From IMG/VR virus record IMGVR_UViG_2897352509_000011: a stretch of 64,000 nt of DNA. One strand, written 5' to 3'. Position numbers: made by a program. Position 1 is the stretch's first letter, and each line of letters starts with the position of its first letter. Source of the stretch: a virus (taxonomy: Duplodnaviria > Heunggongvirae > Uroviricota > Caudoviricetes). This document shows, in pieces, positions 48,001 to 51,000 of the stretch.

Positions 48001-51000
48001 ATGTCGGTGATACTTCGTCGCTGTCGCCTCATGCAGCCCTCCTGACGCCCAGCCCGATCGCCATCAATGCCGCTTTGGATACGGTAGTAAACATCCGTCG
48101 AGGACTGATGAACGGTCGCCAAATCAGCAACATTGAGCCTTTGCTGTTTCCCTTCTTCTCCAGCCCTGTCGATGGTTCGATAAAATTAATCCGTCCATCA
48201 GTGATGATGCGAACTTCGTCAACACTCTCCAGAGCCTTGCTGAACCATCCGACAGACATATCCTCTGGCACAAGCATCACTACCGTCTGTCGCTGTTGTA
48301 TGCACTGCTCAGCGGCTTTTTCCACCCACGGCCTGATATTGCTGTACGGTGGGTTATTCCAGATTGCACCGTGGCTTATCCACTCAGAATTTAGCGCGTC
48401 GTCAGCCTCAGTTAGCCAGTGAGCGCACAGAGCGTTTTTGTCGCTCGCAGCTGAATCCAGCCAGAATCCAAACTCAATATCCAGCGCATCAAAAAGCCAG
48501 AGCGGCGTTTGCCAGCAGTCCTTGTCGTGTGCTGGCGTATTTGATTTGATAGTCATGCAGCCTTCCCTTTTCGTTGTGACCATTCATACTCTCGCCGGGA
48601 GTCATCACTCCACCGCACGTTGCGCTCTGAGCCGAACCAGAACATGATTTCGATAAGCTCAGTCATGCTGGCCTTTCGCATTTTGCTGGTACGCACGCCA
48701 AGCATGACAACGCCACCGTCGATACCAGGCGCACTTCTTTGCTCCAGTTTTTTGGTCTTAAGCCACAGGGCAGTGAACAGGTCTTTCCAGTCTTCCGGCG
48801 CCAGCCGTTGACCATGCCATAGCACCTGACGCGAAACATCGTTCAGCATCGGCCACATGCGGTCATTCTGCGCTTTGCTGCGCTTGGGTTCTTTAACGTG
48901 GACTTCGTGGGGTGACTTGTCGTCGATGGGTAGTGAGAGAATGGCGTCTATGGCGTTATTTCTGATTGCTTCGTTGCGAAGCAGAAAGGTTTGCTTCATC
49001 TCCTGCTCTCCGGTTCCATTTTTCAGTAGCCGCAGCAACTGATGGTGCCCATGCCACCCTGGCTTCACAGAGGTCACATTCTGCATAGCCCCACACATCA
49101 ATATTTATTCCGGCCTCAACCCACAGACGAGCATTACCGCCGCAAAACGGACATTCTTTTAGCTTTGGCTGGGTTAATGATAGGTCGCTCATGCTCACTC
49201 CTTCACTTAAAATCCAGACTCCGGATAATTCTGTTGCGCTGAAACTCATTGTTGAGTTTGAACAACCGTCGAAGAACACGGTCACGCGGATAGCGTCGTG
49301 CGGCAGGTGAATGCTCATACAACTCATCAAGCGGCAAACTGGACGATGAACGATACCGATACCAACGCACCAACTCTTCACGAAAATTAGCCCTGACAAG
49401 CTCAGCTATCGTACTCATTTCTTAAAACCTCCTCAAACGCATTCTGACGCATTTTTCATTCTCGCTGCTTATCGGTATACCTTGCACGTGCTTACCTCAC
49501 CACAGAGCGATTGTGATGCCTTAAAAGCGATTTATTGAAGTGATATTTGCTTAATCGAAATTCTTTTCTTTGATTCCTGCGGCCCTGATGGCTTTCATTA
49601 CTGCAATTACCGTTTTGTCACGCCCATCCTCATAACCCATCGCATAAGCACCTTCTTCACCATCTTTCCAAAGGTCGTCATTCGATTCGGGCCAGTCGAT
49701 ATCCAGTTCAATAGCAGAGCGCGATGCCTGCCATATCACCCAGGCAAACTCTTTTAATTCATCGTCTCCCGTGAACTGGCTTTTGTCTTTTGACCACCAG
49801 TTTTCAAACTGTCGGTAGCTATCGTTCACTTCCCTCTCCCCCAAATAAAAAGGCCTGCGATTACCAGCAGGCCTGTTATTAACTCAGTGATGTAGATGGT
49901 CATACGTCAGCCCCTTGTGCATATCGTCTGCCACGCGCAGCAGGTGCATTTGATGCTGTGCAAATCTGTCTGGCTTCATCCTGGTCACATGCAACAAAGT
50001 GTCCGTTACAGAACCGCTGGTAAACTGTACCAAGCGAGCCAAAACGGTTTTTCGTCACGATGATTTCAGCAAATGGCGCGGCGCTACTGTTCTCATCATA
50101 TACCGCTTCCCGATAGAGCATGATGATTGAGTCTGCGTCCTGTTCAATGCTTCCTGAATCACGCAAATCTGCGTTTGTCGGGCGTTTGTTTGGTCGCTTC
50201 TCAACATCGCGCGAAAGCTGACTCAGGGAGATAACCGGTGTTTTCAGGTCTTTCGCCATCGCCTTCAGGCTTCCGGAGATGTGAGCAATTGCGAGGTCGT
50301 TGCGGTCTGCTTTCGGCTTCTCAATCAGGCCAAGATAATCCGCCATGATGAGTGACAGGTTTGGATTTTCCTGCTTATGCCGTTCTGCGATTGAGCGTAT
50401 TTCTTCGACCGATAACCGCGAAGCATCGACTACCCATACATCCAAATCTGCAAGCTGACTCATGCCGTTAGCAACACGTGCCCAGCCCTCGTCATCCATC
50501 GATGCAGGATTTCGCAGTACGCTAACCGACATCCTCCCGGCGTTGGCAATGCTTCGCTCTGCAATCTGCAATGCGCTCATTTCCATTGAGAAAATCAATA
50601 CCCCGCGCCGGACGTCAGAACCAGGAATAACGCGGCTTGCCACACCTTCGGCAATCTTCAGCGCCAGTTCGGTTTTCCCCATACCAGGACGAGCGGCGAT
50701 AATCACCAGGTCTTCTGCGTTCATCCCTCCAGTGATAGCGTCAAGCTCTTCGATTCCGGTCTTCAGGGTATCTGACTCTTCTCCGTTCCTCAGACGCCTG
50801 TCAAGCGTGTCAGTGTAGTCAGTGATGATTTCCCCTAACCGTACAGGTTTAACCTCGTCACGGGGCTTTCTGATGGCTGAAAGACGCTTTACAAGTTCAT
50901 CCATCGCCTGACTCGATGCGTCGATGGTTCCGCTTTGGATTGGTTCACGCATTTCATCCATGATTTCCAGCACCAGACGGCGGTGATAGTTATCCGCGAC

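Follow-up and report, generated by a model that had tools for sequence, protein, structure and literature searches.

An N6-adenine methyltransferase gene and a Lar-family gene in the nin region of a Stx2c prophage of Escherichia coli O157:H7

The DNA stretch considered here, 64,000 nucleotides long and called the window below, comes from the IMG/VR virus record IMGVR_UViG_2897352509_000011. The part in question (48029-49192) carries a gene for a phage N6-adenine DNA methyltransferase (Dam) and a gene for a zinc-ribbon protein of the Lar family, to both of which a sequence-only reading had assigned a counter-restriction role. This span is a piece of the nin region in a lambdoid Shiga toxin 2c (Stx2c) prophage of the phage 2851 type in Escherichia coli O157:H7. 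It extends exactly from the stop codon of the methyltransferase gene to the start of the Lar-like gene and also holds ninB, which that reading had left unnamed.

The 2.1 kb between 47800 and 49900 recur with 100 % identity in Stx2c phage 2851 and in over ten O157:H7 chromosomes, among them the Stx2c prophage-bearing genomes EC4115 and TW14359. Any part of this 2.1-kb query was matched in 2199 of 5426 complete E. coli genomes and in 429 phage records, and the whole block, defined as a match over at least 80 % of the query, in 470 E. coli genomes and 114 phage records. Projected onto the window, the EC4115 annotation distinguishes three zones, i.e., a CP4-44-like island, a set of chromosomal genes (yeeA, sbmC, dacD) and the lambdoid prophage with stx2c. 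The Dam, NinB and Lar-like genes are already known: they are identical to genes of published Stx-phage genomes and are named by the standard NCBI pipeline (PGAP), which calls their products in EC4115 “phage N-6-adenine-methyltransferase”, “recombination protein NinB” and “Lar family restriction alleviation protein”. No experiment on the Lar-like gene of Stx phages surfaced in literature searches; searches on the two Pfam families concerned, PF05869 and PF14354, brought up no paper of relevance to their function. The roles of the Lar-like gene and of a phage Dam in dam+ hosts bear on the crossing of strain barriers by Shiga-toxin phages.

Gene order and junctions of the nin run

Six tightly packed genes follow one another in the direction of transcription, coding for a hypothetical protein, a DUF7301 protein, the Lar-like protein, NinB, Dam and NinE, and the run is bounded by two terminator-like hairpins (Table 1). 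The sequence of the upstream hairpin also stands before ninB in lambda, and tR2 is annotated at the equivalent position in phage Nil2; this hairpin is where the nin region starts, and the second one is probably the end of this segment of the transcription unit. Family scores for the genes of interest are far above chance level. The hypothetical protein encoded directly after tR2 has no match in Pfam or NCBIfam.

Table 1. Positions of the nin-region genes and hairpins and of two further genes of the window
Feature	Position	Strand	Basis
dnaB-like replication gene	ends 49900	-	ORF (open reading frame) map
tR2-like intrinsic terminator, 3' of the dnaB-like gene	49851-49874	-	terminator scan: 8 pairs (6 GC) then TTTTATTT
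hypothetical protein phrog_343, first after tR2	49551-49829	-	PHROGs E 1.2e-29; PGAP coding sequence at the same place in EC4115
DUF7301 protein, 71 residues, function unknown	49203-49418	-	PF23975 E 3.8e-26; phrog_1785
Lar-family zinc-ribbon protein, 78 residues	48956-49192	-	PF14354, TIGR03655, phrog_599
NinB/Orf recombination mediator, 148 residues, between the Lar-like and Dam genes	48553-48999	-	PF05772 E 2.1e-48, full profile; phrog_72
phage N6-adenine DNA methyltransferase, 175 residues	48029-48556	-	PF05869, TIGR01712
NinE, 60 residues, last of the overlapping run	47850-48032	-	PF05322 E 8e-44
terminator-like hairpin 3' of ninE, within an isrK-family RNA match (47737-47813)	47742-47758	-	terminator scan, Rfam
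phage N gene	55451-55723		Pfam scan of pL-side ORFs
ArdB/KlcA-family antirestriction protein	1144-1623	+	PF03230, PDB matches

Between the DUF7301 stop codon and the ATG of the Lar-like gene lies a gap of 10 nucleotides with GGAG. Downstream of it, the last 44 nucleotides of the Lar-like gene overlap ninB, and ATGA stop/start overlaps join ninB to dam and dam to ninE. The overlapping minus-strand genes of the “translationally coupled run” described by the sequence-only reading are thus there as claimed; the coupling itself is deduced from the overlaps and is probable for the last four genes (Lar-like, NinB, Dam and NinE). A longer dam start at 48583 was discarded; the ATG at 48556 was preferred, since it creates the ATGA overlap, agrees with PGAP and lets the profile match start at residue 2-4. 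ORFs in alternative frames and on the plus strand over 48029-49192 gave no credible family, the best being a sub-threshold “Tat” match (E 0.024).

A 14-nucleotide direct repeat, GGA(G/A)GGCTGCATGA on the coding strand, occurs at both ATGA ends of dam (48029-48042 and 48553-48566), and the starts of ninC and ninD in lambda carry the same motif, GG..GGCTGCATGA, which agrees with an exchange of cassettes at conserved gene borders. Lambda has the order ninB-ninC-ninD-ninE; in the window, dam fills the ninC/ninD slot, and the Lar-like gene together with two genes of unknown function is inserted between tR2 and ninB.

The phage Dam methyltransferase

The dam product matches Pfam PF05869 (“Dam”) with 216.4 bits against a cut-off of 28.1 (E 2.6e-64; profile positions 1-166 of 169). 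Its score with the equivalog TIGR01712 of NCBIfam is 264.2 bits, against a cut-off of 97.05 (profile positions 1-165 of 165). The catalytic motif IV, (D/N)PP(Y/F/W), is present as NPPY at residues 68-71 (window 48344-48355), and the protein also contains WQTP at residues 15-18 and LDSAA at residues 33-37. The two family matches and the position of the motif bear out the N6-adenine methyltransferase that the sequence-only reading had recognised in the nin region by its NPPY. A sequence search of the PDB returned no chain at an E-value of 0.1 or below.

The enzyme of phage VT2-Sakai, M.EcoVT2Dam, is identical to the window protein at 173 of 175 residues; the two substitutions, I60V and L169Q, are conservative or peripheral and both lie away from WQTP, LDSAA and NPPY. 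The two enzymes otherwise agree in length, in Pfam and NCBIfam family, in the position of their genes between ninB and ninE and in the ATGA overlaps, and the same dam gene is found in phages 2851, Phi24B, HK97, CP-1639 and Nil2. In a methylome study of E. coli strains that produce Shiga toxin (STEC), the target of M.EcoVT2Dam is given as GATC (PMC6602927). As its orthologue at 99 % identity, the window Dam is predicted to be GATC-specific. The term “Dam-type” used in the sequence-only reading is accordingly apt for the reported specificity but not for the family, since a Pfam scan of the phage protein (E ≤ 0.01) gave PF05869 alone and no host-Dam family. The Dam of the E. coli host belongs to a different Pfam family.

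More distant relatives of the phage enzyme, with 30-50 % identity, are found widely, in Klebsiella and Vibrio phages, in T1-like phages and in others. The Dam of T1-like phages (Drexlerviridae) also belongs to PF05869, is about 170-185 residues long and matches over 97 % of the window protein, but it shares only 31-35 % identity with it and is encoded by virulent phages in another genomic context. Like the window Dam, the enzymes Hia5, Hin1523, Nme1821 and M.EcoGI/GII are orphan m6A methyltransferases of prophages, and they are thought to give phage DNA broad protection (PMC3299994). Unlike it, the enzymes of the Hia5 type possess a motif I of the form FxGxG and, over some 90 residues, a region that corresponds to a target-recognition domain (PMC3299994), and the STEC methylomes list M.EcoVT2 homologues as GATC enzymes, apart from the non-specific M.EcoGI/GII homologues (PMC6602927). 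A non-specific methylase of the Hia5 or M.EcoGII type was rejected on these grounds.

GATC itself is scarce in this prophage. In the prophage part of the window (8000-64000) it is the most under-represented 4-nucleotide palindrome, with 110 sites observed and 245 expected from the trinucleotide content (ratio 0.45), and GATC-free gaps of 3.8-6.6 kb lie at 37317-43963, 13772-18963 and 48056-51896. The last of these takes in the Lar-like gene, the replication genes and nearly all of dam, which has its sole GATC at 48056. STEC prophages are noted to show something similar (PMC6602927). Such scarcity is odd for a phage with its own GATC methylase, and it fits selection acting on GATC.

In the reading that we prefer, Dam would methylate GATC on fast-replicating phage DNA, so that packaged genomes would be fully methylated. 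In the next host, full methylation might shield phage DNA from nucleases blocked by G-m6A-TC, and it might also shield it from MutH and SeqA effects; Dam may in addition feed into lysogeny control. A tentative alternative, to be taken seriously, is that the phage Dam chiefly keeps fast-replicating phage DNA GATC-methylated for ends of the phage's own and not for counter-restriction, i.e., to avoid MutH nicking or SeqA sequestration, to control phage promoters or packaging, or to stabilise or tune lysogeny and induction. All natural hosts are dam+, and hence GATC methylation adds no new pattern. The strong depletion of GATC and the long GATC-free stretches, in this prophage as in those of STEC, also speak for this alternative. 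Host Dam is reported to be essential to stable lysogeny of 933W (PMC3342100). The study also deals with the Phi24B copy of the same 528-nucleotide gene (99 % identical to that of phage 2851). The Phi24B copy was found to be expressed in cultures of lysogens, and induction altered its expression; the authors discuss it for lysogeny, not restriction (PMC3342100). However, the position of dam behind tR2 in a delayed-early operon speaks against strong expression in repressed lysogens. Methylation for the phage's own ends and protection from GATC nucleases look alike in sequence, and both may hold together.

The Lar-family zinc-ribbon protein

The Lar-like protein exceeds the cut-offs of Pfam PF14354, Lar_restr_allev (37.8 bits, cut-off 28.6), and of NCBIfam TIGR03655 (61.4 bits, cut-off 39.6), and it matches PHROG 599, “Lar-like”, with an E-value of 1.5e-38. 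Its ECPFCGG motif includes CPFC at residues 14-17, which is followed by CDLC at 39-42 and WNRR at 59-62, so that two CxxC pairs are formed by C14/C17 and C39/C42. With Lar (RalR) of the Rac prophage in E. coli K-12 (MG1655 record) it shares 36 % identity over 58 residues (pairwise E 3e-10); the four cysteines C14, C17, C39 and C42 are invariant between the two proteins, as are W59, N60 and R62 of the W-N-x-R motif. A six-frame search of the whole window with Rac Lar gave the Lar-like ORF as its sole match (E 8e-7). Judged by its sequence, the window protein is a true member of the Lar family, and the resemblance that the sequence-only reading had noticed from CPFCGG is substantiated by the three profile matches and by the identity to Rac Lar.

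A single-sequence AlphaFold2 model is weak (mean predicted local distance difference test score, pLDDT, 60.7); its four strands and C-terminal helix are compatible with a zinc ribbon. A sequence search of the PDB found no solved relative, the best matches being the zinc-ribbon ribosomal proteins eL43/L37a at E-values of 0.1-0.9. The protein is identical to orf30 of VT2-Sakai at 76 of 78 residues, and BLAST detects its gene only in Stx and lambdoid phages, in 119 records whose identities are all 83 % or higher.

Both the window protein and Rac Lar are small zinc ribbons of the same families, with CPFCG...CxxC and a C-terminal WNxR, and both are encoded in the early region of a prophage. They differ in length (78 vs 64 residues), in their tails and in gene position, which is upstream of ninB in the pR/nin operon for the former and downstream of recET for the latter. 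Rac Lar is reported to alleviate EcoKI restriction and to enhance modification (King & Murray 1995, as quoted by PMC2993543 and PMC4041452). Under the name of RalR, the same protein has been described as a non-specific DNase toxin controlled by the small RNA RalA (PMC4041452). Lambda Ral, which turns M.EcoKI into a de novo methylase (PMC3874165, PMC12707154), resembles the Lar-like protein in proposed function, namely alleviation through de novo methylation by EcoKI, but is unrelated to it in sequence and is encoded in the pL operon. Lambda Ral itself appears to have no counterpart in the window: the best tblastn match had an E-value of 1.5, and Pfam scans of the tested pL-side ORFs returned no Ral family. 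The Lar-like protein is therefore the phage's only candidate of the Ral/Lar type. The pL-side region (54000-57400), where no homologue of lambda ral was found, encodes N, a DUF2528 protein, cIII with a thermosensor RNA (56644-56702), kil and gam (57008-57304), as well as several ORFs of 60-173 residues without a Pfam family.

Going by its 36 % identity to Rac Lar, the Lar-like protein most likely functions as Lar and Ral do. It would tilt the type IA methyltransferase of the host (EcoKI family) towards de novo methylation, and unmodified phage DNA would then be modified instead of cut. Five EcoKI sites are present in the prophage part of the window.

It is unlikely, in our estimate, that the Lar-like protein is no restriction alleviator at all but a non-specific DNase of the RalR kind or an accessory of the NinB/Orf pathway. 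The founder, RalR, cleaves both methylated and unmethylated DNA and is toxic (PMC4041452), and several neighbourhoods hint at recombination: the Lar-like gene overlaps ninB by 44 nucleotides, lar adjoins recT in Rac, and RecT, YqaJ, SSB or NinB are encoded beside Lar-family genes in some viral loci. Such recombination neighbours are, however, a minority (about 7 of 58 loci), and restriction alleviation is the older, genetically defined phenotype of Lar (PMC2993543). The window protein also differs from RalR in staying below the cut-off of the RalR equivalog NF007260 (28.7 vs 113 bits) and in having no recognisable RalA-like antisense partner. No inverted repeat of at least 12 nucleotides occurs within 47400-50000, which leaves room for a more distant trans-acting RNA, and the Rfam scan found no antitoxin-type RNA family beside the gene. 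A further proposal, improbable as it stands, draws on the 44-nucleotide overlap with ninB and on the fact that lar adjoins recET in Rac. It holds that the Lar-family protein encoded in the nin regions of Stx and lambdoid phages is a DNA-acting zinc-ribbon protein, either a RalR-like nuclease or a DNA-end factor, which works with NinB/Orf recombination; if so, it would be no EcoKI-directed alleviator.

Independent cassettes and their setting

Dam and the Lar-like protein do not make up a two-part system but are encoded by independent mosaic cassettes. Among diverse viral loci with Lar-family genes (n=58), there is no consistent partner gene: when the immediate same-strand genes were surveyed (54 upstream, 52 downstream), RecT was found upstream in 4 loci, DUF1187 downstream in 5, a methyltransferase in 3 and NinB in 1, the remaining neighbours being assorted early-region genes. 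The loci with RecT and DUF1187 are probably Rac-like prophages. We give very little credence to the idea that the Lar-like protein serves the phage's own methyltransferase as an enhancer of modification or as a DNA-binding subunit, both forming one system. The methyltransferase is small (175 residues) and without a target-recognition domain, Lar and Ral have been described as methyltransferase enhancers (PMC2993543, PMC3874165), and the two genes lie in one overlapping run. Nevertheless, ninB stands between them, and phage records with the Dam allele (at least 95 % identity) outnumber those with the Lar-like gene by about two to one (244 vs 119). In Sf101 and mEp043 the annotation under the Dam match shows only NinB and NinE, and methyltransferases account for only 3 of the roughly 106 immediate neighbours surveyed. 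Moreover, the methylome study ascribes the GATC specificity to M.EcoVT2Dam itself and names no partner (PMC6602927).

The KlcA-type gene that the sequence-only reading had placed at 1144-1623 is indeed there. Its product matches PF03230 (Antirestrict) with 126.8 bits (cut-off 25; E 3.8e-37) and the solved structures of ArdB (2wj9, E 4.7e-100) and KlcA (2kmg, E 5.9e-21). The gene lies about 47 kb from the nin genes, in a mobile element separate from the prophage, i.e., the CP4-44-like island, where its neighbours in the EC4115 annotation are DUF932, yeeS, yeeT and cbeA/cbtA. Its presence in the same window as the nin genes is therefore coincidental. Dam, the Lar-like protein and ArdB/KlcA belong to independent elements or cassettes, and their co-occurrence is no designed combination; of the “several anti-restriction functions in one window”, the gene identities stand and the joint significance does not. 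In the same island the cbeA antitoxin gene is intact, and the cbtA toxin gene (2935-3198) is apparently truncated or frameshifted, with an ORF of 87 residues (the EC4115 copy is frameshifted according to PGAP).

Taken as a whole, the locus is explained best, and with good probability, as the nin region of a Stx2c prophage with a delayed-early run in which Dam and the Lar-like protein are independent cassettes with putative protective roles. By analogy with lambda, the run would be transcribed as a delayed-early message from pR after the N protein has allowed RNA polymerase to pass tR2. A “counter-restriction” label for the two genes is plausible in this setting. Several observations weigh against such protective roles. 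For Dam, the GATC specificity of the window enzyme goes back to a citation for an orthologue with 99 % identity; E. coli hosts already possess a Dam, which makes an anti-restriction gain doubtful; and in the literature found, the Dam of Stx phages is discussed only for lysogeny (PMC3342100). As for the Lar-like protein, its score is far below the RalR cut-off, its gene is part of the pR/nin operon and not, like lar and ral, of a pL-side early region, and the activity of a DNase toxin has also been ascribed to the founder of its family (PMC4041452). Finally, as delayed-early products, Dam and the Lar-like protein cannot act at the moment of DNA entry.

Directly 3' of ninE, the minus strand carries Rfam matches to isrK (74.7 bits), the C4 antisense RNA (76.6 bits) and sRNA-Xcc1 (79.3 bits), at 47737-47813, 47624-47711 and 46596-46679. 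They are interleaved with three antirepressor-like ORFs (46813-47571, 45877-46557 and 45080-45808), whose types are ORF6N, ORF6N+P22_AR_C and, in the EC4115 annotation, KilAC-domain. These RNAs and genes appear to form an RNA-controlled antirepressor module inside the nin region. The ORF6N antirepressor-like gene contains a 30-nucleotide tandem repeat (47286-47379; 3.1 copies, 92 % matches), which repeats the peptide ...SQNLRVTLSN....

Elsewhere in the prophage, the recombinase gene exo (YqaJ) is split by an element of the IS3 family (about 58390-59603), named IS1203 in the EC4115 annotation, and an ALIL pseudoknot lies in the region of this element at 59206-59322. In the EC4115 annotation the portal gene is frameshifted and tail gene L is split. 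Because of these three lesions, this prophage copy may be defective, although phage 2851 shares an identical nin region. Amid the tail genes (about 18531-20126), the same annotation shows genes for an Ant antirepressor and for two repressors of the Arc family, which adjoin the split gene L in a P22 immI-like arrangement. Directly 3' of the stx2c B-subunit gene, a small RNA of the STnc100 family is matched at 41152-41363 on the minus strand (Rfam, 158.5 bits).

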